Positions 3,026 through 50,610 of a stretch of DNA of 64,000 nucleotides are shown here, one piece after another (within the stretch, counting starts at the first letter, position 1; each line of letters starts with the position of its first letter). The stretch lies in the NCBI GenBank assembly GCA_041662205.1, contig JBAZSZ010000002.1, positions 103,266 to 167,265 on the forward strand, written 5' to 3'. The notes under the pieces were generated by a model, which saw only the letters and a list, made by a program, of their open reading frames with translations, searched no databases and had not been told where the DNA came from. Source of the stretch: Minisyncoccota bacterium (GTDB taxonomy: Bacteria > Patescibacteriota > Minisyncoccia > Phycocordibacterales > UBA9973). The translations under genes were made by a program, and so were the position numbers.

Positions 3026-3127
3026 AAATATTTTAATAACAATCTAATTGTAACATCTCTTTTAAAAGGAAACTAGGTTTTTGGGGATATCTATGTCTTA
3101 TTTTATAATTATAGTATAATTTATTCC

Positions 3128-9890: not shown

Positions 9891-9903
9891 TAGTTATCCA
9901 CAT
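9891..9903 (+). promoter_or_regulatory. Perfect DnaA-box-like motif TAGTTATCCACA upstream of a -35/-10 pair (LysM-M23 gene leader)
   Basis: TTATCCACA is the canonical DnaA box. The same extended 11-12-mer recurs at 12069-12078, 26966-26976, 42156-42167 and, in reverse orientation, at 37783-37794, each 25-40 nt upstream of a plausible -10 hexamer. Confidence 0.5.
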
Positions 9904-10170
9904 TAATTTACGATTAAATTGACTTTTGACCCTTTTTGAGCTATTTTAGGAGTATAGTTCTGAAGAGAGGTATGGGGCAAATTGACCGAATTCCAGAGAA
10001 GATAGTAACATCGTGAGAATCTTTTTCCACCGGTTGGTGGACACAGTACTGTGGTCGTCCTGTAATTCTAGCCTTATATTTAAAGGCTAGAAAAGGAAAT
10101 CTCGCGACATTTTGTTTGTTTTATAAAACCTAAATTCAAAATTCTAAAATCACTCGTATCCTTTTTCCTG

Positions 10171-11184
10171 TTGTTTGGGGTTCTTTTTGTGCCCTCACTA
10201 CCAGCTCAGGCAGACCTATTCTCTTCCCTCTCTTCTATCTTTGTCGGTGATCAAGCCTATGCGCTTCAGGCCAATGTTTCTTCTATTTCAATTTTAGAGG
10301 ATAAAAATAACAAAGATGGTGCAAAAGACAATATTATCGGTGGCATAAATACAAACACAGACAATATTTCTGACGATGATAAGGCACTTACCCCTAACGT
10401 TGGTTTAATGGGGGTATCAGATGGAAAAGACACTCAAGATTATTCTGAAGAAGATATTAGTGTTTACGTGGTAAGAAATGGTGATTCTATTTCCCAAATA
10501 GCTGATATGTTTGAAGTTTCGACTAATACAATTCTTTGGGCTAATGATATGAAAAAAGGTGATAAATTAGTAGAAGGAGATACTTTGATTATTTTACCAG
10601 TTTCTGGTGTAAAGCATACAGTTCTCAAGGGGCAAACTTTAAAAGGAATTGCTAATAAATACAAAGTAGATATTTCAGACATCGCTAGTTTTAACGGGAT
10701 AGCTATGGATTCAGATCTAGCTCTTGGAGATGAGCTTATTATCCCTGATGCTGAAATGGTTAACGTTGAAGCCCCTAAAAAACCAAAGACTAATTCAGTA
10801 AATAGTATAAAAACAACACTCAAAACTTTAGTAGGATACTTCATCAATCCTGTCCCAGGCTATAAGAGGGTAAGTCAGAAGTTACATGGTAATAATGGTG
10901 TTGATTTAGCTGCTCCAATTGGTACAAAAATTATTGCCGCTGCTTCTGGAACAGTGCTCTTGGCGCGTAATGGATATAATGGAGGTTATGGAAATATGGT
11001 TATTATTAAACACTCAAATGGAACTAAGACTTTATATGCTCACCAATCAAAAATAGCTACCAGTACAGGAGCTAAAGTGTCTCAAGGAGAAATCATTGGC
11101 TATGTAGGGTCCACTGGACGCTCAACCGGCCCTCACCTTCACTATGAAATTCATGGTGCTAGGAATAATACTTTAGATTTGTAA
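10171..11184 (+). CDS. LysM-domain M23-family peptidoglycan endopeptidase
   Basis: LysM segment YVVRNGDSISQIADMFEVSTNTILWAN...GDTLIILP. M23 signature HGNNGVDLAAP...GNMVIIKHSNGTKTLYAHQS...GSTGRSTGPHLHYEIH. The start is a TTG; no in-frame ATG lies upstream. Confidence 0.8.
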   Translation: MFGVLFVPSLPAQADLFSSLSSIFVGDQAYALQANVSSISILEDKNNKDGAKDNIIGGINTNTDNISDDDKALTPNVGLMGVSDGKDTQDYSEEDISVYVVRNGDSISQIADMFEVSTNTILWANDMKKGDKLVEGDTLIILPVSGVKHTVLKGQTLKGIANKYKVDISDIASFNGIAMDSDLALGDELIIPDAEMVNVEAPKKPKTNSVNSIKTTLKTLVGYFINPVPGYKRVSQKLHGNNGVDLAAPIGTKIIAAASGTVLLARNGYNGGYGNMVIIKHSNGTKTLYAHQSKIATSTGAKVSQGEIIGYVGSTGRSTGPHLHYEIHGARNNTLDL

Positions 11185-11218
11185 ATTTGCTCTAAAAAGC
11201 AAAACTACTTATTTGTTG

Positions 11219-11289
11219 TGCGGGATAGGCGAATCGAACGCCTGCCCAGAGTTTGGAAAACTCTTATTCTACCACTAAACTAATCCCGC
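11219..11289 (-). tRNA. tRNA-Gly (anticodon UCC)
   Basis: Manual fold of the reverse complement. Acceptor GCGGGAT/ATCCCGC, anticodon stem AGAGU/ACUCU with loop UUUCCAA, T-arm AGGCG-UUCGAUU-CGCCU. Confidence 0.75.
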
Positions 11290-11334
11290 TTTCGTTAAAG
11301 CTTCGGCGGGCGAGCCCGCTTAGGCTATAACTTG

Positions 11335-11405
11335 TCGGGCTGCTGGGAATCGAACCCAGTCTAAACGCTCCCAAAGCGCTTGTACTACCGGTATACTACA
11401 GCCCG
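11335..11405 (-). tRNA. tRNA-Pro (anticodon UGG)
   Basis: Manual fold. C1:G72 acceptor CGGGCUG/CAGCCCG typical of bacterial tRNA-Pro, anticodon loop UUUGGGA, T-arm CUGGG-UUCGAUU-CCCAG. Confidence 0.75.
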
Positions 11406-11452
11406 TTAAATTATCAAGCTACAAAAACACATAACTACGCTCATATAATATA

Positions 11453-11863
11453 TCACAAGATAATATCACTTACCACTTTTATTTTCGCTTTTTTGTTTTG
11501 TATATCAAGGAATACAATCAATAGATCCACTTGCCATCCTTTTTCATCAGGTATTTTTTCTGATAAAAGATAAGTTTGTATTGTTCGTGATAAACGTTTA
11601 AGTTTCCATGGGTGCATATTGTCTTCAGGCTTATAGTTATCTTTTGTTCCATGTGAAACATTTTTTAAGGTTTTATGTGCGACTGATTTTACTTCAATAA
11701 AGTGTAATTTATTGGTCTTTTCAGCTACAATATCTATTTCACCCCATTTTTTCGTATAATTTCTATTTAATATTAGAAAATTATGTTTCATGAGAAACCT
11801 TACAGCTATATTTTCTCCAATTTCTCCAGTTTTTTGGGTTTTTGAGGTAAATACTTTTGGCAT
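11453..11863 (-). CDS. yraN: YraN-family (UPF0102) predicted endonuclease
   Basis: 136 aa with the GEIDIVA core typical of UPF0102/YraN. Confidence 0.65.
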   Translation of the reverse strand: MPKVFTSKTQKTGEIGENIAVRFLMKHNFLILNRNYTKKWGEIDIVAEKTNKLHFIEVKSVAHKTLKNVSHGTKDNYKPEDNMHPWKLKRLSRTIQTYLLSEKIPDEKGWQVDLLIVFLDIQNKKAKIKVVSDIIL

Positions 11864-12132
11864 TTTATTTATTGTTTTAAAATAAAATCCTTATTTTAAA
11901 AACAAAAAAGCTGTTTCACGTTTAACATGTTTCACATGAAACATAGTAACAAATTTTTAGTAAATTTTATGTCTTTTACTATAATATCCTTATTTTATAA
12001 GATATATACAGAAAAAATGCTAATAAAAGACAGTTTCATATTGTGTCCTTTATGAACAGTACTAACATAGTTATCCACAATTTTATTAAATCTTTAATTT
12101 ATAAGGTATTATTAAGGGACATCATTTTTTTG

Positions 12133-12203
12133 TGCGGCCAGAGAGAATCGGACTCTCGTCTCATCCTTGGCAAGGACGTGTTCTACCACTGAACCATGAC
12201 CGC
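12133..12203 (-). tRNA. tRNA-Gly (anticodon GCC); the T-loop reads UCCGAUU rather than UUCGAUU
   Basis: Manual fold. Acceptor GCGGUCA/UGGCCGC with one U-G pair, D-stem GUUC/GAAC, anticodon loop UUGCCAA, T-stem GAGAG/CUCUC. Confidence 0.65.
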
Positions 12204-12275
12204 AAATTTATCTATGTATAAAGACCACCGAATATGACCGCAAACTACTTATGTATAAAAACCACCGAATATGAC
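12204..12275. repeat. Two tandem ~34-bp direct repeats, each carrying a pseudo-copy of the first ~17 nt of the adjacent tRNA-Gly(GCC)
   Basis: tatgtataaagaccaccgaatatgaccgcaaa occurs twice. On the minus strand it reads gcggtcatattcggtgg, against the tRNA 5' end gcggtcatggttcagtgg. Confidence 0.7.
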
Positions 12276-12418
12276 CGCAAATTATATTTTAAAAAACTAT
12301 AAACAATTATAATATTTAATTAGAACTAATGCAATTATTAAATTAACCAATTAAATAAAGCTTATTTGTGAGTATTTTAAAAATAATGTATAATATGTAG
12401 TATTATTATATTAATTAC

Positions 12419-12490
12419 GCACTCGTAGTGAAATGGATATCACAATAGTCTTCGGAACTATTATTGAGGGTTCGAATCCCCCCGAGTGCA
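12419..12490 (+). tRNA. tRNA-Arg (anticodon UCG)
   Basis: Acceptor GCACUCG/CGAGUGC, D-stem GUGA/UCAC, anticodon stem AUAGU/ACUAU with loop CUUCGGA, T-loop UUCGAAU. A TATAAT-like -10 lies about 30 nt upstream. Confidence 0.7.
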
Positions 12491-14105
12491 CAAAACAAAA
12501 GTGGAACAGGATGTTAAAAATTTAATATCAAAAACACCCAAAGAAGTTTCACATGTAACTAATACGCTCGAAAAAGATGGTTTTGAGGCATATCTAGTTG
12601 GCGGGTGCGTTAGAGATCTTTTGATGTCTAAGGAGCCAAATGACTGGGATATCACAACTAATGCTAAACCAGAGCAAATTATAAGTCTTTTTGAAAAGAC
12701 TGTTTATGAGAATGGCTTTGGTACAGTAGCTGTGGTTGTTCCGCGTGAAACACATCAAGAGGATGTTTCACATGGAACAAACCCTATTCCCTTGTCAGAA
12801 GAGAAAAATATGATTATAGAAGTTACTCCTTATAGAATTGAAGCAAAATATAGCGATTTTAGACATCCAGATGAGGTGAAATTTAGTGATAAGCTGGAGG
12901 ACGATCTTAAAAGACGTGACTTTACGGTTAATGCCATGGCCTTAAACAGTAAAGGACATCTGGTTGATTTTTTTGATGGTATAAAGGACATTAACGAAAA
13001 GACAATAAAGGCAGTAGGGAATCCAGATGATCGTTTTGCTGAAGATGCTCTCAGGATGTTGCGCGCTGTACGTCTTTCCTGCCAGCTTAATTTTTCTGTG
13101 GCTTATGAAACGATGCAAAGTATTTTGAAAAATTCAGAGTTGATAAAAAAAATTTCTGAAGAAAGAATTCGTGATGAGTTTGTAAAAATAATTATGTCGG
13201 AAAATTCCGCGAATGGAATCGTGATGTTACAAAAATTTAATTTGTTAAAAAATATAATTCCTGAACTAGAAGAGGGAATAGGCTGTGAACAATCCGGTGA
13301 GCATATTTACGACGTTTGGAATCATTTACTTCATGCATTAGAACATGCGACAAACAAGAATTGGTCTTTGGAAATAAGGCTCGCAGCGCTTTTCCATGAT
13401 ATTGGGAAGCCCCGAAGTAGGCGTATTGCGGAGCGAATTGATAATTTATCAGGTCCTCGGTCTTTCGGGTCCCTACCCCGGCCAGACCATGACAAATCAT
13501 CAATTCGCTCCGCAAAGAAAAAATTTACTTTTTACGGTCATGAAGTTGTCAGCACGCGGATGGCAAAAAAAATAATGGAGAGATTAAAATTTCCTAAAAA
13601 AGAAATTGAGTTAGTAGAAAAACTTGTTCGCAATCATATGTTTTTTTCTGACACAGAATTAATCACGCTGTCAGCCGTGCGAAGAATTATTGCAAAAGTT
13701 GGAAAAGAAAATATTTGGTTATTGATGAATGTCCGTGAGTGCGACAGGGTAGGGATGAAGAAAAAAGAAACCCCATATCGCCTTCGGAAGTATTTTGCCA
13801 TGATTGAGGAAGCCCTGAGAGATCCTATTTCTGTCGGACAGTTGAAAATCAACGGTGAATTTATGATAAAAGAGCTTGGAATCACTCCCGGACCACGCAT
13901 GGGGTGGATTTTACATGCATTACTCGAAGAAGTGCTAGATGCTCCGGAGAAAAACACGGTAGAACATCTGTCGGAGTTGGTAAAATCTTTAAATATGTTG
14001 GGGGATACAGAACTAAAAACTCTTGGTCTACGTGGAAAAGAAAAAAAAGAAGAATTAGAAGAAGAAGAGGTTGTGAAGCTTCACAAAAAGCATGGAGTGA
14101 AATAA
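12486..14105 (+). CDS. cca: CCA-adding tRNA nucleotidyltransferase with an HD domain, carrying an in-frame palindromic element insertion
   Basis: GGCVRDLL, RRDFTVNA, and the HD motif LFHDIGKP...FYGHE with about 26 extra residues (..NLSGPRSFGSLPRPDHD..) between GKP and FYGHE, encoded by repeat copy D. The start is a GTG at 12486 (overlaps the tRNA-Arg 3' end by 5 nt) or at 12501; there is no early in-frame ATG. Confidence 0.8.
   Translation: MHKTKVEQDVKNLISKTPKEVSHVTNTLEKDGFEAYLVGGCVRDLLMSKEPNDWDITTNAKPEQIISLFEKTVYENGFGTVAVVVPRETHQEDVSHGTNPIPLSEEKNMIIEVTPYRIEAKYSDFRHPDEVKFSDKLEDDLKRRDFTVNAMALNSKGHLVDFFDGIKDINEKTIKAVGNPDDRFAEDALRMLRAVRLSCQLNFSVAYETMQSILKNSELIKKISEERIRDEFVKIIMSENSANGIVMLQKFNLLKNIIPELEEGIGCEQSGEHIYDVWNHLLHALEHATNKNWSLEIRLAALFHDIGKPRSRRIAERIDNLSGPRSFGSLPRPDHDKSSIRSAKKKFTFYGHEVVSTRMAKKIMERLKFPKKEIELVEKLVRNHMFFSDTELITLSAVRRIIAKVGKENIWLLMNVRECDRVGMKKKETPYRLRKYFAMIEEALRDPISVGQLKINGEFMIKELGITPGPRMGWILHALLEEVLDAPEKNTVEHLSELVKSLNMLGDTELKTLGLRGKEKKEELEEEEVVKLHKKHGVK
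13443..13499 (-). repeat. Palindromic element copy D (reverse orientation) inside cca
   Basis: aggtcctcggtctttcgggtccctaccccggccagaccatgac. The variant central hairpin ttcggg/ccccgg contains one G-U-type mismatch. Confidence 0.75.
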
Positions 14106-39212: not shown

Positions 39213-40079
39213 TTATTGACTGTCGCTTCCTGAATTATTAGAATTATCTAATTTCAATTTATCTAATTCTATTTTTACTTCGTCTTTTAAAGATTTAACT
39301 GCATCTCTAAGTGCTTGATGAGCATCTTTAATAAGATTTTGAGTATCTTGTGCAAGAGTTACTAATTTAGCTTTTTCTGTTGCAGAAAGTTTATTAACTG
39401 AGGTTGCTAGAATTGTGTTTATTTCTGTAATTTTTACATTAGCAGTATTTAGTTTTGTTTCAGCTGTTGTTACAAAAGCTTTAGCGTTCGTAACATTTAC
39501 TCCCTTCAATGCTAGTTTGGCTATTTGATTGTTAATTCTATCTTTTAAATTATTCATTCTTGCAACTGCCGCATCAAATCTCTGTAATGCATTTTCTCTT
39601 CCAGAAATTCTTGTCTCGCCATCTAATTTTTTGGCTAAATTTTTTTCTCCTTTAAGGATAGATTTTAAATCCTCTAGTTTATTTTTTGCTACTTCACGTA
39701 GTGCCCTGTTTGCATCATCACCACTATCAGATGAATTGTCGATACGCACTCCAGCTGCATTAAAATCTCCTCTACCTTGGTCTGGGGTCCCATCATCATC
39801 ACCAGGAGTATTGTCTATGCGTACTCCAGCTGCATTAAAATCTCCTCTACCTTGGTCTGGGGTCCCATCATCACCAGGAGTATTATCTACACGTACTCCG
39901 GCAGCGTTGAAATCACCAGAACCTTGGTCAGGAGTTCCATCATCACTACCACCTCCACTACTACTAACGCCACTGGAAGAATTACCAGAACTTCCATCTT
40001 TTGCTTGAGAGTTATTTGCATTCATCATAAACACTAGCATTAAAACAATCACAAACAAACCTATATTTTTTTTCATCAT
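39213..40079 (-). CDS. Secreted protein with three tandem 22-23-aa RGD-containing repeats and a C-terminal coiled coil
   Basis: Signal peptide MMKKNIGLFVIVLMLVFMMNANNSQA. Repeats GDDGTPDQG(R/S)GDFNAAGVR(I/V)DNTP x3. The DNA repeat period is 66-69 bp over about 39740-39950. Confidence 0.6.
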   Translation of the reverse strand: MMKKNIGLFVIVLMLVFMMNANNSQAKDGSSGNSSSGVSSSGGGSDDGTPDQGSGDFNAAGVRVDNTPGDDGTPDQGRGDFNAAGVRIDNTPGDDDGTPDQGRGDFNAAGVRIDNSSDSGDDANRALREVAKNKLEDLKSILKGEKNLAKKLDGETRISGRENALQRFDAAVARMNNLKDRINNQIAKLALKGVNVTNAKAFVTTAETKLNTANVKITEINTILATSVNKLSATEKAKLVTLAQDTQNLIKDAHQALRDAVKSLKDEVKIELDKLKLDNSNNSGSDSQ

Positions 40080-40893: not shown

Positions 40894-42057
40894 TTATTCC
40901 TCAATTTTTTCAACTGTAGAAGAAGTTTGAGCTTCGATGGGGGTAGTTGCTTCATCACCCTTGATATCTATCCTCCAGCCGGTGAGCTTGGCAGCGAGAC
41001 GTACGTTTTGTCCACCTTTACCGATAGCGAGGGACAGCTGATCATTGGCTACTTCTACAATGGCTTTGTGCTCCTTTTCATCTATCACAATTGAAATAAC
41101 TTTTGCTGGGGAAAGGGAATTAGAAACAAATTGGATGGGATTTTCGGACCAAGGAATGATATCAATTTTTTCTCCAGAAAGCTCTGTGGTAATAGTATTT
41201 ACTCGAGTTCCTTTTTGTCCGACACAAGAACCGACTGGGTCAATATGTTCATCGTTTGAAAAAACTGCAATTTTTGTACGGGCGCCTGCTTCACGGGCAA
41301 CAGATTTTATTTCCACTATACCGTTTTCTATTTCTGGTGCTTCGATGGAAAAAAGTTTTTCTACAAATTTAGGATGAGTGCGTGAAAGACGCAAGTTGAT
41401 ACCTCGATGAGTGTCTTCTACGCTATAAAGGTAAGCTCTTATTCTTTGTCCTCGAGTCCAATATTCTCCAGGAATTTGTTCTTCGGCTGGCAAGATTCCT
41501 GTCGCTCTATTGAAATCTACATAGACATTTCCTCTTTCTACTTTTTGAACTATACCAGAGATGACTTCTCCTTCTTTGGTGCCGTATTCGTCAATAATAG
41601 AAGTACGTTCCGCTTCGCGGATTTTCTGGATGATGACTTGCTTGGCAGTTTGTGCGGCGATACGTCCATAATCATCTTTTTGTTCTAGTGGGAAAATGAT
41701 TTCATCATTGAGTTCTGCCCCTTTTTTTATTTTTTTTGCGTCTTCGAGAAGAATGTGATGTTCGGAATTAAAATGTACTCGTTCATCCATGTCATCTTTT
41801 ATGGAATATTCCCCACTTTCTTTTTCGTCATCCATGATAGCGATACTTTCATCAACCACGATTTTTACTTGGAAGAAATCTGTTTTACCAGTTTCCATAT
41901 CAAATTTGGCTCGGATGATTTGTCCTTTTTTACCGTAATCTTTTTTATAAGCAGCAGCCATGGCCTGTTCTATTGCTTCTAATATTTTTGCTTTTGGAAT
42001 TTTCCTTTCTTCTTCCAATTGTTCTAACGCTGATTTGAATGTTTTTATGTCTAACAT
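40894..42057 (-). CDS. nusA: Transcription termination/antitermination factor NusA
   Basis: N-terminal domain, S1 domain, and two KH domains (GSCVGQKGTRV and IGKGGQNVRLA). Confidence 0.9.
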   Translation of the reverse strand: MLDIKTFKSALEQLEEERKIPKAKILEAIEQAMAAAYKKDYGKKGQIIRAKFDMETGKTDFFQVKIVVDESIAIMDDEKESGEYSIKDDMDERVHFNSEHHILLEDAKKIKKGAELNDEIIFPLEQKDDYGRIAAQTAKQVIIQKIREAERTSIIDEYGTKEGEVISGIVQKVERGNVYVDFNRATGILPAEEQIPGEYWTRGQRIRAYLYSVEDTHRGINLRLSRTHPKFVEKLFSIEAPEIENGIVEIKSVAREAGARTKIAVFSNDEHIDPVGSCVGQKGTRVNTITTELSGEKIDIIPWSENPIQFVSNSLSPAKVISIVIDEKEHKAIVEVANDQLSLAIGKGGQNVRLAAKLTGWRIDIKGDEATTPIEAQTSSTVEKIEE

Positions 42058-42086: not shown

Positions 42087-42110
42087 AAGCCCTGTGGCTA
42101 CAGGACTCAT
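42087..42110 (-). terminator. Candidate leader terminator/attenuator in the nusA 5' region (minus strand)
   Basis: On the minus strand: GUCCUGU-agcc-ACAGGGC followed by UUUUUUU, about 30 nt upstream of the nusA ATG. No co-directional upstream gene exists for it to terminate. Confidence 0.45.
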
Positions 42111-42214
42111 ACCAGAAAATAGTACCATAAGAGTGATTTTTATGCAAACACAATAGAGTTATCCACACCTCTGATTCACCCTTTTTCTTTTTTGTTCTAT
42201 ACTTATCTTAACTT

Positions 42215-42505
42215 ATGAATAAAAATCAAAAGGTCGCAATAATTATTTTGATTGTCATCTTTTTAGGTTTGTTTATCTTTTATTTTATCTTCCGTTCAAA
42301 ATCTCCTCCACCACCACTTACCGAAGCAGAAGTAAGACAAGCTCTCATTGATTCCACAACTGCTCCCATCACCTCAATTCCAATGAACCCAAAAGAAATA
42401 AAGCAACTCATAGATTCCACTACTGCCCCAACACAAAAACAAACACCAGCATTAAAAACAAAACAACCATTAACAGCAAATAAATATAAATATAATGAAA
42501 ACTAA
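42215..42505 (+). CDS. Small membrane protein with a Pro/Thr-rich tail
   Basis: TM segment VAIIILIVIFLGLFIFYFIF. First gene of the pilus-associated cluster. Confidence 0.5.
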   Translation: MNKNQKVAIIILIVIFLGLFIFYFIFRSKSPPPPLTEAEVRQALIDSTTAPITSIPMNPKEIKQLIDSTTAPTQKQTPALKTKQPLTANKYKYNEN

Positions 42506-43370
42506 AATAATCCAAAATATAAAATCAATCATCTTAGCCTTAATTTTAGTACTTGGTGTAAGTTATGTTTCTGCTTTTAGTACTTGGGTTAATCCAACTT
42601 CAACTCCACCTAATAATAATGCTGATACACCACTTAATGTAGGTAATACTGGTCAAATAAAGGTTGGAGGTTTGACGCTGAACACAGGTGGGGCTCCTAA
42701 TGGTCTTATTGTACAAAGTGGTAAGGTGGGTATCGGGGTAGCGAGTCCAGCTCAAAAATTGGATGTAGCTGGAACAATTCAAGCTACTGGATTAAAGATT
42801 ACAACTGGTGCAACTGCGGGAAAAGTTCTGACTTCTGACGCATTAGGTGTAGCGACTTGGCAGGCAGCAGCAGCGGGAAGCGGAGATAATCTAGGTAATC
42901 ATGTAGCGACCCAAGCATTAAATATGAATAATAATGTTATCACTAGGCAGGCCTCGGGTGATTTCAATACTGTTGAACTTCAAAGTGGTTCCGATCGAAT
43001 TAGCTTTGATAATGGTTCTTATAATGGAGAAACAGTTTTTGCAGCGCTTATTAACGAAGGACCTTACCCAATACAGAGAAGAGGGAGTTTGAATTGTCCA
43101 GCTGGGCAGGCTATTCGTACAATTGGTGTAAATGGAAGTGCGACGTGTGTTGATGTGGGAGCAACTACAACAAGTGTTACTTTGACAAATTGTGAGTGGA
43201 CTGCATGGGAATACAATGCTACTGGCGCCAATGTTAAAGGTGCTGGCTTGGGCCCAACATATTGTCCAGCTGGAAAAATTGCAAGTGGGTTTGATCTGGA
43301 TGGTTCTTCAAACAATGATAACGAATCTGTTTTTCAAAGAATGTATTGTTGTTCAATGAGTTTCCAATAA
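42495..43370 (+). CDS. Secreted protein with a phage-tail-fibre-like repeat domain and a Cys-rich C-terminus
   Basis: Signal peptide, then VGIGVASPAQKLDVAGTIQATGLKITTGATAGKVLTSDALGVATWQ (a motif widespread in tail-fibre-like proteins), and a C-terminus with 8 Cys. Confidence 0.55.
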   Translation: MKTKIIQNIKSIILALILVLGVSYVSAFSTWVNPTSTPPNNNADTPLNVGNTGQIKVGGLTLNTGGAPNGLIVQSGKVGIGVASPAQKLDVAGTIQATGLKITTGATAGKVLTSDALGVATWQAAAAGSGDNLGNHVATQALNMNNNVITRQASGDFNTVELQSGSDRISFDNGSYNGETVFAALINEGPYPIQRRGSLNCPAGQAIRTIGVNGSATCVDVGATTTSVTLTNCEWTAWEYNATGANVKGAGLGPTYCPAGKIASGFDLDGSSNNDNESVFQRMYCCSMSFQ

Positions 43371-43389
43371 TCTTTGGTTTAATAAAATA

Positions 43390-44763
43390 ATGAAAATTTC
43401 TTTTTTAAAAATTATTTTTGTTTTAGCATTTATTTTTTGTTTTTCTCCTTTTCTGGCTTCGGCAAGTGTTACAGACAATATGTCAGGTTATGCTTGGTCC
43501 TCAAATATCGGTTGGATTAGTTTTAATTGTACGAACAATAATAGCTGTGCGACTTCAAATTATGGTGTTAATAAAGATGCAAGTGGTAATCTTGTAGGAT
43601 ATGCTTGGTCACCAAATATCGGTTGGATCCAATTTGGTGGGCTTTCTAGTTTTCCAATTGGATCTGGAACGCAATCAATAAATGCAAAGATAAATGGTAA
43701 CAATTTACAAGGTTGGGCAAAAGCACCTTCTGCTAGTGACGGTAGTAGTGGCTGGGATGGCTGGATTTCTTTATCTGGCGCAGGTCCAAATTATGGGGTA
43801 ATTTTGACTGGTAATGATTTTTCTGGTTATGCATGGGGGAGTGAGGTAATAGGTTGGATCAACTTTGTTAGCGTTGCGGTTGATGCTGGACCTATTATGT
43901 CAGGTACTCTAACCCCAGCCACTTCTTCCTGCGTCATTGCTTCGGGGGCAAGTACTTGTACGGTAAACCTAAGTTGGTCTATCGTAAATCCAGTAGGAAC
44001 TCCCACCGCTATTACCGCTAATGGTATGACTAATGTGAATGTGACCAATACCCTAGTAACCCCTCAGTCAGGAGGCCCTCTAGCCTTAACTGTTCCTTGG
44101 GGAGGTAGGATATTTTATCTTTACAACAACAATGTTCTTTTAGCTCAAAGTACAGTTAATTCAACTTCTGTAACTTGCGTAGCAGGAACTAGTTGGGATG
44201 AAACGAAGTGTGCTCCATCTATTTGCACCCCAACTCCTCCAGGCTTTACTGGAAGCGTAAGTCCATCTTCGGTTGCTGTTGGAGGGGCATACACATTATC
44301 TTGTGACTATGGAGTTAATTCTTGGTACATTTTCCCTACTGTTGGTTCTGGTTCGTGTGAATGGGTTAATACTGAAGGAACAAAAGGGAATTTCAATTGT
44401 ACTGCCGGTTCGAGTACTGGAACTTTTAGTAATAATTGTGTCATTTATAATACCCCAACAGACACAGACCCATCCCATGGTGGTCAGTATTGTACAAGCA
44501 CTAATGCTATAAATAGTCTTACGGTTACCGCTGATGGTAGTGGTAATTGTACTGATGGTATTCAAAATGGAAATGAAACTGGTATTGACACTGGTGGTCG
44601 TTGTACTGGTAGCAGTAATACCTGTTCTGATCCTAGTGAGCACTATTTATGTGGTGATGGCAACCCTGGCACAAATCAAACAAGTAGTCCTACTAAATGG
44701 TCTTGGAGGTGTGGTTCAACCCTTTGTTCAGAAAAGAAAATTCCAGGGTTTATAGAGAATTAA
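43390..44763 (+). CDS. Secreted protein with four GYAWSxNIGWIxF repeats and a Cys-rich C-terminal half
   Basis: Signal peptide MKISFLKIIFVLAFIFCFSPFLASA. Repeats SGYAWSSNIGWISF, VGYAWSPNIGWIQF, DGWISLSG, SGYAWGSEVIGWINF. Confidence 0.55.
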   Translation: MKISFLKIIFVLAFIFCFSPFLASASVTDNMSGYAWSSNIGWISFNCTNNNSCATSNYGVNKDASGNLVGYAWSPNIGWIQFGGLSSFPIGSGTQSINAKINGNNLQGWAKAPSASDGSSGWDGWISLSGAGPNYGVILTGNDFSGYAWGSEVIGWINFVSVAVDAGPIMSGTLTPATSSCVIASGASTCTVNLSWSIVNPVGTPTAITANGMTNVNVTNTLVTPQSGGPLALTVPWGGRIFYLYNNNVLLAQSTVNSTSVTCVAGTSWDETKCAPSICTPTPPGFTGSVSPSSVAVGGAYTLSCDYGVNSWYIFPTVGSGSCEWVNTEGTKGNFNCTAGSSTGTFSNNCVIYNTPTDTDPSHGGQYCTSTNAINSLTVTADGSGNCTDGIQNGNETGIDTGGRCTGSSNTCSDPSEHYLCGDGNPGTNQTSSPTKWSWRCGSTLCSEKKIPGFIEN

Positions 44764-44782: not shown

Positions 44783-44809
44783 AAAAATTCCCCTAGCAGG
44801 GAATTTTTT
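44783..44809 (+). terminator. Intrinsic terminator after the 43390-44763 gene, followed by the pilB promoter (TATACT)
   Basis: aaaaAATTCCC-ctagca-GGGAATTtttttg. Confidence 0.65.
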
Positions 44810-44824
44810 GCTATACTAGTAACA

Positions 44825-46597
44825 ATGCAAATTAACGAAGAACAATTAAAGAAATTTATTTTAGATGAAGGGTTGGTATCTGAAACAGATCTCAAGGATG
44901 CATTTAAAAAAGCTGAAATTAAAAAACAAAAAATTGGGGACGTTTTATTTTCAGATGGGAAAATATCTGAAACTGATTTAAAGCGAATAGAGGCTTATGT
45001 TTTAGGAATACCATTCGTTAGTTTGAATGATAAAAAAATAGATTTTTCTGTTCTTTCTTTTGTGCCTGAACCAATTGCGCGCAATTATAATATTGTCGCT
45101 TATAAAAAAAGTGAAAACAGCTTAGAGGTGGCGATGCTTGATGTTGATGACCTGCCGGTGATTGATTTTATTAAAAAACGTTCCGGCTTAAAAATTTTAC
45201 CTAGGTTAACAGATACAGCTTCTATCAGATCTGTCTTGGTTCAGTATCGACAAAGTTTAGAATCTGAATTTCGAGATATTATTCAAAAAGAAAATGCTAC
45301 TTTAAATAATTCTTTAGGAGAAGACAGTGAAGGTTCTGCAGAAAAAACTGGTGAAAAGTCTGAATTGGAATTAAAACAAATGGCAGAGGATCTGCCAGTG
45401 GTAAAAATAGTAGATTCTTTAATTTTTCATGCAATTTTACAAAATGCGTCCGACATTCATATTGAGCCTGGAGAACATGAGCTCACTGTGCGTTACCGAA
45501 TAGATGGAATCTTGCATGACGCCATGGTCCTTGAGAAAAATGCTGGTTCAGGGATAACTGCGCGTATCAAAGTATTAGCCAATTTAAAATTGGATGAAAA
45601 AAGATTGCCCCAAGACGGCAGATTTAAAATAGAACAAAATGGAGAAAAAATTTCTTTTCGTGTTTCTACTCTACCTACTTTTTTTGGAGAGAAGACAGTG
45701 ATCAGAATTTTAAAAGAAAACACCCATGGTTTTTCTTTAGAAGCGCTTGGTTTTCATGGTGAAGGATTAGAGCGAATACATAACTCATTGAAACAAAAAA
45801 CTGGGATGGTGCTCGCTACTGGTCCGACCGGAAGTGGAAAGACGACTACGCTTTATACTTTGCTTGATATTTTAAATAGACCAGAAGTTAATATTTCAAC
45901 AGTAGAAGATCCTGTCGAATATCAAATGCCTAGAGTCAATCAAACACAGGTTAAACCAGAGATTGGTTTAACTTTTGCCAACGGGCTTCGTTCATTATTG
46001 CGTCAAGATCCGGACATTGTAATGGTGGGAGAAATTCGTGATGGAGAAACAGCTGGATTGGCTATCAATGCTTCGCTTACAGGTCACTTAGTTCTTTCTA
46101 CTATTCATACCAACTCAGCTTCTGGTGCAATTCCAAGACTTATAGATATGGGAGTGGAGCCTTTTTTGATAACCGCCACTGTGAAAACAATTCTAGCTCA
46201 AAGACTAGTGCGTCGACTTACAGCTAATAAAGAAAAATATTTCCTGTCTGATGTAGAGATAAAAAATCTTGCAAAGGTTGTCGATTTAGATAGAGTGTTA
46301 GATTTTTTAAAAATTGAAAAAATTGTGAGTGAAAAAGATGATTGGGAAAAAATTCCTTTTTATAAAGCGATAAAAAATGCTGAATTTGAAGATGGATATT
46401 CGGGTCGGGTTGGGATGCATGAAGTATTAAAAGTTACACCCACTATCAAAGAAATGATTATTAAGGGAAGTTCTCAGGATGATATAGAGGCGCAAGCAAA
46501 AAAAGAAGGAATGATGACTATGATTGAGGATGGAGTTTTCCAAGCAGTATTGGGTTTAACTACCCTTGAAGAAGTGTTCCGAGTTGTTTCAGAATAG
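44825..46597 (+). CDS. pilB: Type IV pilus assembly ATPase PilB (GspE family)
   Basis: N-terminal GSPII-type domain, Walker A GPTGSGKTTTLY, Asp box, Walker B IVMVGEIRD, His box. Confidence 0.9.
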   Translation: MQINEEQLKKFILDEGLVSETDLKDAFKKAEIKKQKIGDVLFSDGKISETDLKRIEAYVLGIPFVSLNDKKIDFSVLSFVPEPIARNYNIVAYKKSENSLEVAMLDVDDLPVIDFIKKRSGLKILPRLTDTASIRSVLVQYRQSLESEFRDIIQKENATLNNSLGEDSEGSAEKTGEKSELELKQMAEDLPVVKIVDSLIFHAILQNASDIHIEPGEHELTVRYRIDGILHDAMVLEKNAGSGITARIKVLANLKLDEKRLPQDGRFKIEQNGEKISFRVSTLPTFFGEKTVIRILKENTHGFSLEALGFHGEGLERIHNSLKQKTGMVLATGPTGSGKTTTLYTLLDILNRPEVNISTVEDPVEYQMPRVNQTQVKPEIGLTFANGLRSLLRQDPDIVMVGEIRDGETAGLAINASLTGHLVLSTIHTNSASGAIPRLIDMGVEPFLITATVKTILAQRLVRRLTANKEKYFLSDVEIKNLAKVVDLDRVLDFLKIEKIVSEKDDWEKIPFYKAIKNAEFEDGYSGRVGMHEVLKVTPTIKEMIIKGSSQDDIEAQAKKEGMMTMIEDGVFQAVLGLTTLEEVFRVVSE

Positions 46598-46605
46598 TTA
46601 GTTGC

Positions 46606-46683
46606 GCTTCTTCCAATTTTTCTTCGGCTCATCCTTCTCGGAGTACCGAGCGGGACCCTACCGAAAGAAAAATTGGAAGAAGC
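46606..46683. repeat. Compound GC-containing palindrome between pilB and pilC
   Basis: cttcttccaatttttcttCGG...CTCGGagtaCCGAG...CCGaagaaaaattggaagaag. An 18-bp outer inverted repeat encloses an inner palindrome. The right arm overlaps the possible TTG start of pilC. Confidence 0.6.
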
Positions 46684-47911
46684 TTTACAAAAAATGTTAT
46701 TTTTATACAGCGCAAAATCAAAAACAGGGGAAATTTTGGAAAGTGTCTTGGACGCCACTGATCGTTATACTCTTGCTCGAGAGTTGCGTTCTCGGGGTTA
46801 TGCTCCATTGTCGATTACAAAAAAAAATAAATATTTTAGTGATAAATTTTTAGCCCTGTCTGATATTTTTTCAAAAATAAAAGTTGCAGAGCAGATCATA
46901 TTGACTAAAAATTTAAGTGGAATGATCAAAGCAGGACTCTCCCTTTCCAGAGCATTATCGGTTTTAAAAAAGCAAACAAAAAATCCTAAACTAATTAAAA
47001 TTTTAACTTCTTTAATAAATGATATAAATTCTGGAGAAACTTTTTCTTTTGCTCTTTCAAAATTTCCAAATGTTTTTTCTAAACTTTTTACCTCGATGGC
47101 TCGTGCTGGGGAAGAATCAGGAAATCTGTCTGGAGCTCTTTCTGATATTGGATTAAATCTGGAAAAGTCTTATTCTTTGAATAAGAAAATTAAAGGCGCG
47201 CTTATTTACCCAGGAGTGATCATGTCAGCGATGGTCGTTATTGGTGTTTTGATGTTTGCTTTTGTGGTGCCAACTTTGGCAGGTACATTCAAAGAACTTG
47301 GAGTGGTATTACCTTTTTCTACTCAGGTCCTTATATTTTTTGGTAATTTTTTCTCGCATAATTTAATCCTAACTTTTCTAATAATTTTCAGTACAGCTCT
47401 CGGTATCATTTCTCTTTTTCAAGCTAAATTCATGGCGCCGTATATTGATTTTATTATTTTAAAAATTCCAGTTGTGAATAATTTAACTAAAGAATTAAAT
47501 ACTGCCCGCACGGCTCGCACTATTTCTTCGCTTTTAATTTCTGGTGTTTCTTTAACTCGAACTATTGAAATAACTGAAGATGTAGTGCAAAATATTTATT
47601 ATAAAAAAGTTTTAAATGAAGCAAAATTAGCGATAGAAAAAGGAGAGCCATTTTCAAAGGCATTCGAAGCTCATCTTGATTTATATCCTGTAATGATGTC
47701 CGAAATGATTGAGGTCGGAGAGGAAACAGGAAAACTATCTGATATGTTGCTTGAAATTGCTTTATTTTATGAAGGAGAGGTAGAAAATAAAACTAAAAAT
47801 CTTTCCACTATTATCGAGCCTTTACTCATGATTGTTATCGGATCGGGGGTTGGGTTTTTTGCTATTTCAATGATTTCCCCATTGTATTCAATTTTAGGAA
47901 GTATAAATTAA
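46673..47911 (+). CDS. pilC: Type IV pilus platform protein PilC (T2SS F-domain x2)
   Basis: Two GspF-like repeats with TM helices. The ORF-track start is a TTG at 46673; an ATG at 46694 is an alternative. Confidence 0.85.
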   Translation: MEEALQKMLFLYSAKSKTGEILESVLDATDRYTLARELRSRGYAPLSITKKNKYFSDKFLALSDIFSKIKVAEQIILTKNLSGMIKAGLSLSRALSVLKKQTKNPKLIKILTSLINDINSGETFSFALSKFPNVFSKLFTSMARAGEESGNLSGALSDIGLNLEKSYSLNKKIKGALIYPGVIMSAMVVIGVLMFAFVVPTLAGTFKELGVVLPFSTQVLIFFGNFFSHNLILTFLIIFSTALGIISLFQAKFMAPYIDFIILKIPVVNNLTKELNTARTARTISSLLISGVSLTRTIEITEDVVQNIYYKKVLNEAKLAIEKGEPFSKAFEAHLDLYPVMMSEMIEVGEETGKLSDMLLEIALFYEGEVENKTKNLSTIIEPLLMIVIGSGVGFFAISMISPLYSILGSIN

Positions 47912-47915
47912 CAAC

Positions 47916-48401
47916 ATGATTAATTTATTAAAAATTAAGAAAGATTTTTTACTAAAGACGCGGGGGATATCTGTAATAGAGATATTGATTATAATTGCAG
48001 TCCTTGGTATTATTTTTTTGATTTTTATTCCTCAATTTTCTAAATTAAGAGAAATGCAAGTACTCAAAAGCGGAGTTGGAGATATCTTGTCTTCCATAGA
48101 CAAAGCACGTAGTGAAACGCTAGCATCTGTTGACTCTTCTTCTTATGGGGTGCATTTTCAATCTGATAAAATTATAATTTTTAAAGGTACAGTTTTTTCT
48201 GATTCTGATGTAAATAATAAAACAATAAACATTACAACACCCGCAACTATTTCTGATATTACTCTCGGGGGTGGGGGGAGTGATCTTTATTTTAATCGTC
48301 TTTCAGGTGCACCAAACACTACCGGAACTGTAATAGTTTCCACCACTTCTTATTCAAAGACGATCACAATTTCTGCTACTGGAGTTGCTAGCGTTAATTA
48401 A
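47916..48401 (+). CDS. Type IV pilin/pseudopilin (class III prepilin signal)
   Basis: KTRG/ISVIEILIIIAVLGIIF: Gly at -1, Glu at +5, then a hydrophobic helix. Confidence 0.75.
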   Translation: MINLLKIKKDFLLKTRGISVIEILIIIAVLGIIFLIFIPQFSKLREMQVLKSGVGDILSSIDKARSETLASVDSSSYGVHFQSDKIIIFKGTVFSDSDVNNKTINITTPATISDITLGGGGSDLYFNRLSGAPNTTGTVIVSTTSYSKTITISATGVASVN

Positions 48402-48402
48402 G

Positions 48403-48828
48403 ATGAAAAATATTTTTTTTAAAAAAGGTTTCATGGTTGTGGAAGTATTAATAGCTGCTTCTATTATTACTGTTTCTGTTTTAGCTGCGATGACGGTTGC
48501 TCAAAAATCTATTTTTGTTTCTCGCCAAGCTTTGCATGTGACACAAGCGTCATTTTTATTAGAAGAAGGAGCCGAGAACGCGCGAATTGCTAGAGATAAT
48601 GCTTGGAGTAATGTAGCGAGTATTAATTCTTCGGAACAAATAGGAATTTTTACTAGAACGGTTGTTGCTTCAAATACGAATCGTGACAATACTACTAAAG
48701 ATATTGTTAGTGTCGGAGGCGTTCTTGATCCTGGAACAAAATTAATAACTGTTACTGTTTTTTGGCAAGAAGGCGGGCAAACAATAACCAAATCATTACA
48801 ATTTTTCATATCTGATATTTTTTTATGA
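48403..48828 (+). CDS. Pseudopilin
   Basis: KKG/FMVVEVLIAASIITVSVLA prepilin signal with Glu at +5. Confidence 0.7.
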   Translation: MKNIFFKKGFMVVEVLIAASIITVSVLAAMTVAQKSIFVSRQALHVTQASFLLEEGAENARIARDNAWSNVASINSSEQIGIFTRTVVASNTNRDNTTKDIVSVGGVLDPGTKLITVTVFWQEGGQTITKSLQFFISDIFL

Positions 48829-49310
48829 TAAAAATTAATCGACAAAAAAATGGTTACGCTATCTTAGAACTTCTTTTTTATGTCGCTTTTTTTTCTATTC
48901 TTTCTTTGGTGGTGATCAATGCGATGATTACAATGGCTAGAGCATTAAAGGAAACTACCATACACGCGGAATTAATTCAGAGTGGAAATATCATGGAAAG
49001 AATGTCGAGAGAAATTAGACAAGCTAGTGATATTATATCAATCAGCGCAAATGATTTAGTGCTTGATGCTGGGTCAGGCAAAACAATAGAATTTAAGTTA
49101 GTTGGTTCAGATGTTCAACTTTGGGATACTAGCACTAATATTGGAAATTTAAATTCACCCAATATTATAGTTACCGCTCTTACTTTTACTCAAATAATTA
49201 CAACAAAAGGAAAAGCGGTTAAAATAGTTTTAACTATAAGGCCTATTAATGATGCATCAGGTAATATCCAAGATTTTTACAATACGATTGTGTTAAGAGG
49301 GAGTTATTAA
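48825..49310 (+). CDS. Pseudopilin
   Basis: KNG/YAILELLFYVAFFSILSLVV prepilin-like N-terminus. Confidence 0.7.
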   Translation: MIKINRQKNGYAILELLFYVAFFSILSLVVINAMITMARALKETTIHAELIQSGNIMERMSREIRQASDIISISANDLVLDAGSGKTIEFKLVGSDVQLWDTSTNIGNLNSPNIIVTALTFTQIITTKGKAVKIVLTIRPINDASGNIQDFYNTIVLRGSY

Positions 49311-49314
49311 TAAA

Positions 49315-50610
49315 ATGAAAAAAACAAGAAGAAAAGTTAATAATCAATCAGGTGCAGCGATGCTTATATCTGTTTTATTTTTCCTTTTCATTTCTTTGGC
49401 AATAATTGCTGGGCTTGTAGGGCCGACTGTGCGGGAATTTAGGAATGCCAGAGTGAATTTGAATTCTAAGCTAGTATATTTTTTAGCGGAATCTGGAACA
49501 GAAGATGCGGCGTATAGGATATTAAACAATATGACGATAGGAAATAGTGAAACAATAACTCTGAATTCTAATTCAGTGACCACTACAATTTCTACTCTTT
49601 TGGGAAATATTAAGGAAGTTGATTCTCTGGGTGACGTTGAAAGTTCACAGCGGAAAACTAGTCTGACTCTTAAAACTGGAGAGGGTACTGTGTTCAAATA
49701 TGGATCACAAGCAGGAGAAGGCGGTTTCGTTTTTCAAAACAATTCTTATGTAAGTGGCAGTTTGTATTCAAATGGTGATATTCTTGGTTCAAATGGTGCT
49801 TATGTCACAGGCGATGCATTTGTGGCTGGGAATACTGGATTAATTTCAAATATGCGTATTGGTTACGGTGGTACTGGGAATGCGCATTCCCATAATGTAA
49901 CTGGTTCAACAGTAACTGGTACAATTTATTGCCAAGTTGGTTCTGGAAACAATAAAAATTGTGATACTTCACAGGCTGATCCTGAGATTAAGGAAATGCC
50001 AATATCTGATGAAAAAATTACTCAATGGAAAACTGATGCAACTAATGGTGGAGTGACGGAAAACAATGTAATAATTTCTACACCAACTTTTCTTGGTCCC
50101 CAAAAGATAATAGGTAATTTGACAATAAATGATATTTTGACCATTACAGATACTATTTATGTAACAGGTAATATTATAATTAATGCTATTCCAGGACAAC
50201 CAACACCACCATCTTTAAAGCTGACTTCTTCTTATGGAGCAACCTCAGGTATTATAATTGCTGATGGTTATATTATAATAAATAATGGTGTTGCTTTTGA
50301 AGACTCCGGAACTACTGGAAGTTATATATTACTTTTATCAAATAGTACTTGTGATGCAAGTATGTCTGGAAGTCCTTGTAATGGACATAATGCGATTGAT
50401 GTCAGCAATAACTCAGCTATTTCAATATTAAATGCTCAAAAGGGCACAATTTATTTTAGTAATAATGCAAGTGTAAAAGAGGCAGCAGGAAAAAAAATAG
50501 AATTAAAAAACAACACGCATTTTGATTATGGAAGTGGGTTGATAAATGTTGATTTCACAAGTGGCCCTTCGGGTTCTTGGGTTATTGATAGTTGGGAGGA
50601 AAGTATTTAA
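49315..50610 (+). CDS. Large minor pilin-like protein (431 aa, PilX/tip-adhesin-like)
   Basis: N-terminus QSGAAMLISVLFFLFISLAIIAGL (prepilin-like but lacking Glu at +5), followed by a Gly/Asn/Thr-rich beta-rich region. Confidence 0.55.
   Translation: MKKTRRKVNNQSGAAMLISVLFFLFISLAIIAGLVGPTVREFRNARVNLNSKLVYFLAESGTEDAAYRILNNMTIGNSETITLNSNSVTTTISTLLGNIKEVDSLGDVESSQRKTSLTLKTGEGTVFKYGSQAGEGGFVFQNNSYVSGSLYSNGDILGSNGAYVTGDAFVAGNTGLISNMRIGYGGTGNAHSHNVTGSTVTGTIYCQVGSGNNKNCDTSQADPEIKEMPISDEKITQWKTDATNGGVTENNVIISTPTFLGPQKIIGNLTINDILTITDTIYVTGNIIINAIPGQPTPPSLKLTSSYGATSGIIIADGYIIINNGVAFEDSGTTGSYILLLSNSTCDASMSGSPCNGHNAIDVSNNSAISILNAQKGTIYFSNNASVKEAAGKKIELKNNTHFDYGSGLINVDFTSGPSGSWVIDSWEESI

Follow-up and report, generated by a model that had tools for sequence, protein, structure and literature searches.

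A tail-fibre-like adhesin gene and a GYAWS-domain gene ahead of a type IV pilus operon in a Candidatus Paceibacterota genome: candidate components of a host-recognition module

A stretch of 64,000 nucleotides from a Candidatus Paceibacterota metagenome-assembled genome (contig JBAZSZ010000002.1; hereafter called the window, whose positions serve as coordinates) carries three genes that precede a type IV pilus operon on the forward strand. They encode a small membrane protein (tm96), a tail-fibre-like protein (p291) and a secreted protein with a Trp/Gly-rich N-terminal domain, here termed GYAWS (p457). With moderate confidence, the three genes are interpreted as a module for host recognition at the surface of an episymbiotic Paceibacterota, acting in concert with the type IV pilus. 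The decisive evidence for the pilus link, stronger than synteny, is the fusion of the GYAWS domain to prepilins in protein-database sequences. The first-pass annotation had placed genes for a small membrane protein and for proteins of 291 and 457 amino acids (aa) on one strand before pilB-pilC and four pilin-like genes, and the open reading frames (ORFs) are as it described them:
42215-42505, + strand: tm96, ORF of 96 aa
42495-43370, + strand: p291, ORF of 291 aa
43390-44763, + strand: p457, ORF of 457 aa
The last two have identical NCBI entries (WC694_02835 and WC694_02840). The gene order on the + strand is tm96, p291, p457, pilB, pilC and the four pilin-like genes; tpiA and pgk come next.

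Prepilin-GYAWS fusions were found in at least 13 clusters (P0215, P0326, P0329, P0330, P0343, P0364, P0366, P0369, P0372, P0375, P0382, P0387 and P0410). Their prepilin N-terminus, G↓(F/Y)TL(I/L)E, is followed by a GspH-like module (the best NCBIfam match, yet below cut-off), sometimes an fn3 domain, and one or two C-terminal GYAWS domains (E=1e-30 to 1e-38). At both fusion loci inspected (2/2), L090 on a 608-kb Candidatus Harrisonbacteria contig and L091, the fusion gene lies directly 3' of pilB-pilC, in the slot that the first pilin-like gene, pil1, occupies in the window. Over p457 residues 30-162, the GYAWS module of P0330 shows 42% identity (E=6e-25). This domain is all that p457 has in common with the P0330-group pilins, as it carries neither the prepilin N-terminus nor the GspH-like module, and p457 is classed by its sequence as a free-standing relative of the GYAWS module and not as a member of the pilin family. 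Because pairwise BLAST of the P0330 pilin module against pil1 was not significant (19% identity, E=0.2), the equivalence of these two is argued from gene position and shared weak GspH matches only. The fusions came solely from protein databases, and no pilin N-terminus was found on the GYAWS or fibre genes of 79 genome loci. The occurrence of one domain both on pilins and in free-standing proteins appears to be new.

The pilus genes downstream of p457 were assigned as follows:
44825-46597, + strand: pilB, GspE/PilB-type assembly ATPase with an MshEN N-domain (PF00437 E=3e-121; TIGR02538 E=9e-156)
46673-47911, + strand: pilC, GspF/PilC platform protein (PF00482 E=8e-54)
47916-48401, + strand: pil1, GspH/FimU-like minor pilin, RG↓ISVIE (PF12019 GspH E=1.4e-3; weak ComGC/GspH)
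48385-50610, + strand: pil2 (PilV/GspI-like), pil3 (in the ComGF/GspJ-like position) and pil4 (in the GspK/PilX-like position)
The genes pil1 to pil4 together span 47916-50610 (+). The weak best matches of the pilin-like genes were to GspH, PilV and ComGF, and the TIGR02523 PilV match among pil2-pil4 (E=3e-6) was under the family cut-off. The prepilin motif G↓xxxxE is present in pil1-3; pil4 (431 aa) has no E5, like GspK/PilX. No major pilin was found in the window, where a regular-expression scan for the prepilin motif returned pil1-3 only. The predicted content of the operon is an assembly ATPase, a platform protein and a minor-pilin set. Residues 12-54 of PilB also gave a weak match to an MshE-type cyclic-di-GMP-binding motif (NF053729, E=2.4e-6, 27 bits against a cut-off of 38); this match alongside the MshEN domain raises the possibility that pilus assembly is under cyclic-di-GMP control.

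Synteny was surveyed in one genome per species, giving 79 loci with 77 GYAWS genes. Of the 52 evaluable loci, 18 had a pilB gene within 8 kb downstream, and at least five gene orders were represented among them; by a rough estimate of our own (a genome of ~0.7 Mb with 2-3 pilB-like genes), a few per cent would be expected at random. The order nusA followed by tm-fibre-GYAWS-pilB was seen in the window, L006 and L007, nusA followed by GYAWS-pilB in L011, L016, L043 and L045, and nusA followed by X-Y-GYAWS-tm-fibre-pilB in L085-L087, L021, L048 and L073; pilB linkage without nusA was seen in L012, L017, L018, L036 and L070. In L037, a free-standing GYAWS gene lies in a complete type IV pilus cluster, with pilB-pilT-pilC and two major-pilin-like genes before it and a PilD-like gene and three minor pilins after it. 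Since gene orders vary in this way between loci, the pilB linkage appears to be maintained. GYAWS genes are partnered most often by fibre genes rather than by pilus genes: of the 77, 38 have a fibre gene as their same-strand neighbour and 46 have one inside 5 kb. Upstream nusA was present in 28/77.

The predicted organization of p457 is:
43390-43464, + strand: residues 1-25, Sec-type signal peptide ending FLASA↓S, read from the sequence
43465-43893, + strand: residues 26-168, GYAWS domain of four Trp/Gly-rich beta-hairpin repeats, all-beta in the AlphaFold2 (AF2) model, predicted local distance difference test (pLDDT) score ~90
43897-44229, + strand: residues 170-280, immunoglobulin (Ig)-like beta-sandwich (AF2, pLDDT about 90)
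44239-44607, + strand: residues 284-406, Cys/Thr/Ser/Gly-rich region (AF2 pLDDT <50)
44617-44739, + strand: residues 410-450, small Cys-containing beta domain (…PTKWSWRCGSTLCSEKK; pLDDT 92-95)
44743-44760, + strand: residues 452-457, tail PGFIEN, with the motif P-x-F/Y-x-E-x-COOH
The mean pLDDT of the model was 73.5, and AF2 placed the all-beta domain at about 30-165. The hydrophobic N-terminus is conserved in the family, and the 410-450 domain is common to a subset of homologues. Both halves that had been noticed at first pass were recovered. The C-terminal part is indeed Cys-rich, with 16 Cys in residues 171-457 (5.6%), and the four Trp-rich repeats comprise three canonical copies (GYAWSSNIGWISF at 33, GYAWSPNIGWIQF at 70 and GYAWGSEVIGWINF at 146) and one degenerate copy, the third in order (GWAKA...GWDGWISL at 108).

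The GYAWS repeats follow the pattern YGV...G.L.G(Y/W)AW(S/G)..(I/V)GWI.F. They are not due to chance, because 108 homologues show little or no variation at these positions, and 34 columns of the alignment (A3) are invariant. The repeat had been said to fit no known family, and this held in every collection searched. For p457 there was no Pfam or NCBIfam match at E<=1 and no PHROG match at E<=0.01, the 108 relatives had no Pfam match on this domain, and the GYAWS profile found nothing at E<=1 among PDB sequences, as did Foldseek at E<=1e-3. The wall-binding families CW_binding_1, SLH, LysM, SH3b and GW were matched neither in the 108 members (E<=1e-3) nor in p457 (E<=1). Structure prediction, which the first-pass annotation had proposed as a check, gave no enzymatic fold for these proteins. 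Full-text literature searches with the strings GYAWS, NIGWI and AWSSNIGW returned unrelated matches only, and those on Parcubacteria pili, adhesin and tail fibre returned nothing describing these families. The GYAWS domain family appears to be new, and it is large: there were more than 2,700 matches at 90% clustering, the profile matched 8,154 clusters at 50% identity with E<=1e-3 (5,235 with E<=1e-10), and at least 558 places in species-level genomes were confirmed. All named sources are Patescibacteria except two short contigs, which are probably misbinned. The variable part of the relatives contains Big_2, CARDB, PKD, TSP1, fn3 and Flg_new domains (Pfam), and some proteins have multiple copies of the GYAWS domain. 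No paralogues were found elsewhere in the window. In the closest relative, L006, the N-terminal 175 residues of p457 are 74% identical, the rest is alignable in parts (73% and 54%), and the 284-406 region is deleted or replaced; p291 is alignable at residues 1-127 alone (50% identity). The corresponding identities are 93% for NusA, 92% for pilB and 50% for pil4. Thus p291, p457 and pil4 are evolving fast compared with the NusA and PilB flanks.

Free-standing GYAWS members end in P-x-(F/Y/W)-x-E-x-COOH irrespective of their middle domains, and in alignment A1 the p457 tail residues P452 and E456 are at least 90% conserved. The strict form P-x-phi-x-E-x was present in 61 of 109 cluster representatives, with E at position -2 in 72. 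Among the 77 genomic homologues a broader regular expression allowing Q/N/D variants matched 41, and Glu at -2 was counted by eye in about 66. A variant LP-x-(F/W)-(K/R)-E-(I/V)-x-P-x also occurs. Among 1,131 ORFs of at least 150 aa from the 79 loci, 52 carried the strict motif, namely 42 GYAWS proteins and 10 other large secreted proteins; none of 14 pilin-GYAWS fusion sequences did (0/14). As the stop codons of the 77 homologues are mainly TAA or TAG (TAA 55, TAG 17, TGA 5; TAA in p457), the tail ends are taken as genuine; an alternative genetic code or read-through behind the short tail was ruled out on the same grounds. The tail does not have the make-up of an LPXTG, PEP-CTERM or GlyGly-CTERM signal: there is no transmembrane (TM) helix or basic cluster, and p457 ends one residue past the conserved Glu. 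Large secreted proteins that carry the tail and no GYAWS domain are encoded in L085 (7810-9984), L086 (8124-9920) and L087 (7715-9400). These proteins have 560-724 aa, lie just 5' of the GYAWS gene and end in PQFKEI or PDFREI; the single one scanned gave a weak PKD match, below cut-off, and each is preceded by a protein of 220-300 aa that has TM segments at both ends. In L085 (14626-15471) and L086 (14387-15220), genes located between pilB and pilC encode proteins with a PEP-CTERM motif (VPEPST...RKRQRKK; PF07589 E=1.6e-4, above cut-off), an exosortase-type signal that is unexpected in Patescibacteria. The shared C-terminal tail appears to be new.

The p291 protein was divided as follows:
42495-42575, + strand: residues 1-27, hydrophobic helix MKTKIIQNIKSIILALILVLGVSYVSA, Sec signal or signal-anchor
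42702-42863, + strand: residues 70-123, stalk and capping-loop motif GKVGIGVASPAQKLDVAGTIQATG...AGKVLTSDALGVATW
42882-43367, + strand: residues 130-291, variable tip with 6 Cys
Residues 1-27 are near-invariant among paralogues that are divergent elsewhere. The AF2 model is confident solely at the N-terminal helix (residues 2-29, pLDDT 84-95) and at ~70-130 (pLDDT 91-95 for residues 70-123). Both segments of the tail-fibre motif noticed at first pass were found, LDVAGTIQAT at residues 89-98 and AGKVLTSDALGVATW at 108-122, and the comparison with phage tail proteins was borne out by PHROG 3269, "tail protein", which matched residues 70-123 (E=1.4e-6). Nothing significant was found for p291 in Pfam or NCBIfam. 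A profile built from 87 p291 homologues (A2) did match fibres of Bdellovibrio bacteriovorus in the PDB: Bd2133 (8ond, E=2.1e-15), Bd3182 (8ojn, E=6e-7), Bd2439 (8ol4, E=1e-5) and Bd1334 (8on4, E=8e-5; 8oml, E=3e-3). The alignment with Bd2133 covers repeated GNVGIGTxxPxxKLxV units. A Foldseek search with the AF2 model likewise placed Bdellovibrio fibres at the top, weakly (E>=0.03). Inside the 70-123 block, residues 78-89 (VGIGVASPAQKL) conform to V-G-G/N-pi-x-x-P-x-x-x-L, the capping-loop consensus of these fibres (PMC10769870).

The majority of the 87 homologues span 15-55% of p291, at its N-terminus; the part common to the homologues is the N-terminal third, and the tips are exchanged. The tip of p291 is conserved in the closest relative at most and not beyond. 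Pfam domains in the tips of the family are S74 (5), gp53-like_C (3), YadA_head (2), C1q (2) and H_lectin (1), and exchangeable tips are thus a property that the family has in common with the Bdellovibrio type of adhesin. Two ties to pili were seen on the fibre side as well. The fibre motif also occurs in a prepilin (P0184), and a p291-family fibre gene in L085 (11602-12552) matched positions 189-278 of the Pfam profile Shufflon_N (PF04917, E=3.9e-14, 53 bits against a cut-off of 27.5), which represents the constant region of PilV, the pilus tip adhesin of R64; p291 had no match to this profile at E<=1. These similarities place p291, which is short, in the superfamily of tail-fibre-like trimeric adhesins, and it would probably form trimers.

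The tm96 protein spans the membrane once, by an N-terminal TM helix, and also contains a Pro-rich linker and two "...E..(x)LIDSTTAP" repeats; it matched no curated family in Pfam or NCBIfam. Many other loci have a similar small TM gene, with 2-3 "L-x-S-L-[ST]-A-P" repeats, just 5' of the first fibre gene, and this gene pair appears to be new in Paceibacteria. The tm96 and p291 ORFs share 11 nucleotides (nt), and this overlap suggests translational coupling; p291 and p457 are spaced by 19 nt. The features flanking the three genes are:
40894-42057, - strand: nusA, divergent, with a 157-nt gap to tm96
42175-42203, + strand: promoter-like site TTCACC-17-TATACT (consensus scan, 9/12 matches, weak)
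44786-44809, + strand: hairpin AATTCCC-ctagca-GGGAATT and T-run, read from the sequence
The promoter-like site is 12 nt 5' of tm96, inside the divergent gap. The same gap contains, at 42087-42108 (-) and ~30 nt upstream of the nusA start codon, a 9-bp GC-containing hairpin with a T-run, which could serve nusA as a leader or attenuator instead of terminating any gene. The 61-nt gap between p457 and pilB contains the 7-bp hairpin with a T-run 3' of it (44786-44809), and a structure scan recorded this hairpin on the minus strand. The element may act as a terminator or attenuator, and it makes co-transcription of p457 and pilB uncertain. The earlier statement that the cluster runs directly into pilB is thus right as to order and strand and has to be qualified for this gap and its terminator-like hairpin.

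Several known systems offer points of comparison. The Bdellovibrio fibres have been described as "mosaic adhesive trimers" (MAT), surface fibres whose proximal part is conserved, whose stalks are beta-helices with capping loops and whose varied tips recognise prey glycans (PMC10769870). The A2 profile aligns significantly to the MAT beta-helix and capping-loop units (GNVGIGTxxPxxKLxV), both families combine a signal peptide and a conserved proximal part with swappable distal tips (S74, C1q/TNF-like, lectin), and both serve a bacterium that attaches to other bacteria. Unlike MAT fibres of about 600-1,150 aa, p291 has 291 aa with one stalk unit, and it has a dedicated small TM partner gene. Its conserved segment of ~45 residues after the helix stands against a beta-rich MAT N-domain of ~130 aa, and the PDB entries of MAT fibres comprise C-terminal parts only. 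The organism encoding p291 is also thought to lack an outer membrane, unlike Bdellovibrio. The thin-pilus tip adhesin PilV of R64 resembles the p291 family in its constant region and exchangeable C-terminal tips, which are pilus-borne in PilV; p291 differs in having no prepilin N-terminus, and no shufflon recombinase or inverted-repeat system was seen.

For the GYAWS proteins, the closest parallels are minor pilins. In Saccharibacteria, lectin-like minor pilins such as PilX2 bind the host, as described for PilX1/PilX2 of Nanosynbacter lyticus TM7x (PMC11623550), and PilB of Streptococcus sanguinis is a modular minor pilin with an adhesive module (PMC8179133). These proteins resemble the GYAWS pilins in that a minor pilin displays an accessory binding module on the type IV pilus. 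The GYAWS module itself belongs to a separate, undescribed fold family, and p457, unlike the modular minor pilins, is not part of a pilin: it is exported by Sec and ends in a C-terminal tail of its own. In this respect the working model for p457 resembles PilY1 and Neisseria PilC, which are non-pilin, Sec-exported, encoded with minor pilins and associated with the tip complex. It is much smaller than these and of an unrelated domain family: no Pfam match at E<=1 to the beta-propeller (Neisseria_PilC/PilY1) was found, and the AF2 model shows beta-hairpin repeats and an Ig-like domain. As concepts, swappable tips on tail-fibre-like adhesins are already known, and so are pilus adhesins of the modular or tip-associated kind.

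In the proposed mechanism, tm96 would be the membrane partner of p291, acting as anchor or assembly factor. p291 would form a short trimeric fibre in which the N-terminal helix and short stalk hold a rapidly exchanged, Cys-containing tip, and this tip would bind a host surface structure. p457 would be exported by the Sec pathway and join the minor-pilin complex non-covalently, with its P-x-F-x-E-x tail as the likely docking element, which would leave the GYAWS domain distal as a binding head, as in the fusions. Action in the minor-pilin complex is proposed because the domain occurs in fused and split arrangements. A role as binding head, probably for a host surface glycan, is proposed because of the Trp/Gly-rich hairpin repeats and the lectin-like minor pilins of Saccharibacteria. 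From these comparisons we infer the surface or pilus location, the pilus-tip position, adhesion, ligand binding and the role of the tail.

Several findings weigh against a host-recognition module that works with the pilus. Neither p291 nor p457 has a class III prepilin signal: the N-termini are MKTKIIQNIKSIILALILVLGVSYVSA↓F and MKISFLKIIFVLAFIFCFSPFLASA↓S, no N_methyl/TIGR02532 match was obtained, and both proteins are read as non-pilins with Sec-type N-termini. The terminator-like hairpin stands between p457 and pilB, and 34 of the 52 evaluable loci have no pilB inside 8 kb; the loci are phylogenetically related, so that they do not count as independent cases of synteny. In L023 and L051, apparent fusA and tuf genes flank the GYAWS gene and the fibre genes lie among ribosomal-protein (S10) genes, these housekeeping genes having been named by eye from ORF sequences. 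In the AF2 models the p291 tip has low confidence and p457 residues 284-406 are poorly modelled, and the GYAWS domain has no likeness in sequence or structure to a known lectin or adhesin (PDB profile, Foldseek). The first-pass annotation had named homologues scattered without pilus linkage as one finding that would speak against it; this was seen in part, at the 34 loci above and not at the 18 linked ones. Its suggestion of pilus components stands for the link to the type IV pilus, through that synteny and the fusions, and is weakened in that neither protein is a pilin and in that tip location and adhesion are inferences.

The main rival explanation takes p291 and p457 as general surface proteins, anchored in the membrane, wall or S-layer and independent of the pilus. 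The proximity of pilB would then be an inherited neighbourhood (nusA ... tpiA-pgk) in one Paceibacteria clade, and GYAWS would be an anchor binding the cell's own wall, like other Trp-rich hairpin repeats. This explanation is considered rather unlikely, and it remains credible because most homologues have no pilB nearby. The Sec-type N-termini fit it, as does an invariant N-terminal domain with variable Ig-like modules, which suits surface display; nusA is also upstream in 12 of the 18 pilB-linked loci, as expected of one conserved frame, L019, L060 and L069 have GYAWS and fibre genes beside tpiA-pgk without pilus genes, and the L023 and L051 genes lie in highly expressed translation operons. 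Against it, pilB linkage recurs outside the nusA frame (6 loci) in different gene orders, no likeness to SLH, CW_binding, LysM, SH3b or other wall-binding families was found, and the distal C-terminal GYAWS domain of at least 13 prepilin clusters would be poorly positioned as an anchor to the cell's own wall. Another explanation takes the pilB-pilC-gspH/I/J/K-like operon as a pseudopilus like that of a type II secretion system (T2SS), exporting p457 and neighbouring large secreted proteins through the wall or S-layer by means of the P-x-F-x-E-x-COOH tail. The operon does contain only minor (pseudo)pilin-type genes with no major pilin in the window, and in these loci only secreted proteins bear the tail (the 42 GYAWS proteins and 10 neighbours among the 52 ORFs). 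To our knowledge, T2SS substrates carry no linear C-terminal signal; tail-bearing GYAWS genes also occur far from any pilB, and the pilin-GYAWS fusions favour display on a filament over export. Patescibacteria pili are moreover observed filaments that serve host binding (PMC11623550), and the export explanation is held to be distinctly improbable.

A remnant of a prophage tail-fibre module is scarcely credible. The fibre motif of p291 does match phage tail proteins, and S74 chaperone or gp53-like tips occur in some homologues. No genes for phage structural proteins, integrase or lysis lie in the vicinity, and the core-genome frame around the locus, from PPase-nusA to tpiA-pgk, is conserved in many species. 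The GC content of the locus is 0.377 against 0.34-0.37 in adjacent windows, and p457 has no PHROG match; a prophage origin was rejected on these grounds. A host-recognition module working with the type IV pilus is the interpretation retained here. A bolder form of it would make the tail a previously unrecognised targeting or docking signal of Patescibacteria, mounting Sec-exported GYAWS proteins and other large adhesin-like proteins on the minor-pilin complex or passing them to the pilus machinery, and GYAWS a new lectin-like fold setting the host range of Paceibacteria; this is regarded as a speculative and unlikely proposal.

Further observations were made at the locus and in the survey. A secreted protein of 288 aa is encoded at 39213-40079 (-), between a 75-aa TM protein and the pyrophosphatase (PPase) gene. 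It has ~3 repeats of 24-25 aa, "(D)DGTPDQG(S/R)GDFNAAGVR(V/I)DN(T/S)" (tandem repeat at 39735-39946), with an RGD tripeptide in two repeats and a coiled-coil-like C-terminal half; the equivalent slot in L001 holds a 281-aa protein without a Pfam match. At 11218-12491, tRNA genes for Gly-TCC, Pro-TGG, Gly-GCC and Arg-TCG form a cluster of four. Adhesin-like genes in translation operons are found at 9902-11565 and 16909-17748 in L023 and at 10001-11498, 13443-14063 and 17197-17733 in L051; there a small TM gene accompanies the GYAWS gene in fusA-tuf, and the fibre genes lie between rpsJ and rplC and after rplB. Because they are embedded in these operons, high constitutive expression is suggested. 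In L003, a locus without pilB, four small T4SS_pilin (PF18895) genes (2519-4624) lie 5-7 kb upstream of the tm-fibre-GYAWS trio. A reverse-transcriptase gene (RVT_1) in L086 (1866-2852), ~8 kb upstream of the GYAWS gene, could be part of a diversity-generating retroelement acting on nearby surface proteins.

We know of no cultured member of the class-level group Paceibacteria (Parcubacteria), and the locus gives candidate determinants for how these organisms find and hold their hosts. The candidates are a family of short fibres, equipped with swappable tips and related to those with which Bdellovibrio recognises its prey, and a very large, uncurated GYAWS family that merits a curated family entry and a solved structure. 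The fast-evolving tips could mark host range in metagenomes, and the partner of the C-terminal tail could show how non-pilin proteins are mounted on the pili or surface of Patescibacteria.

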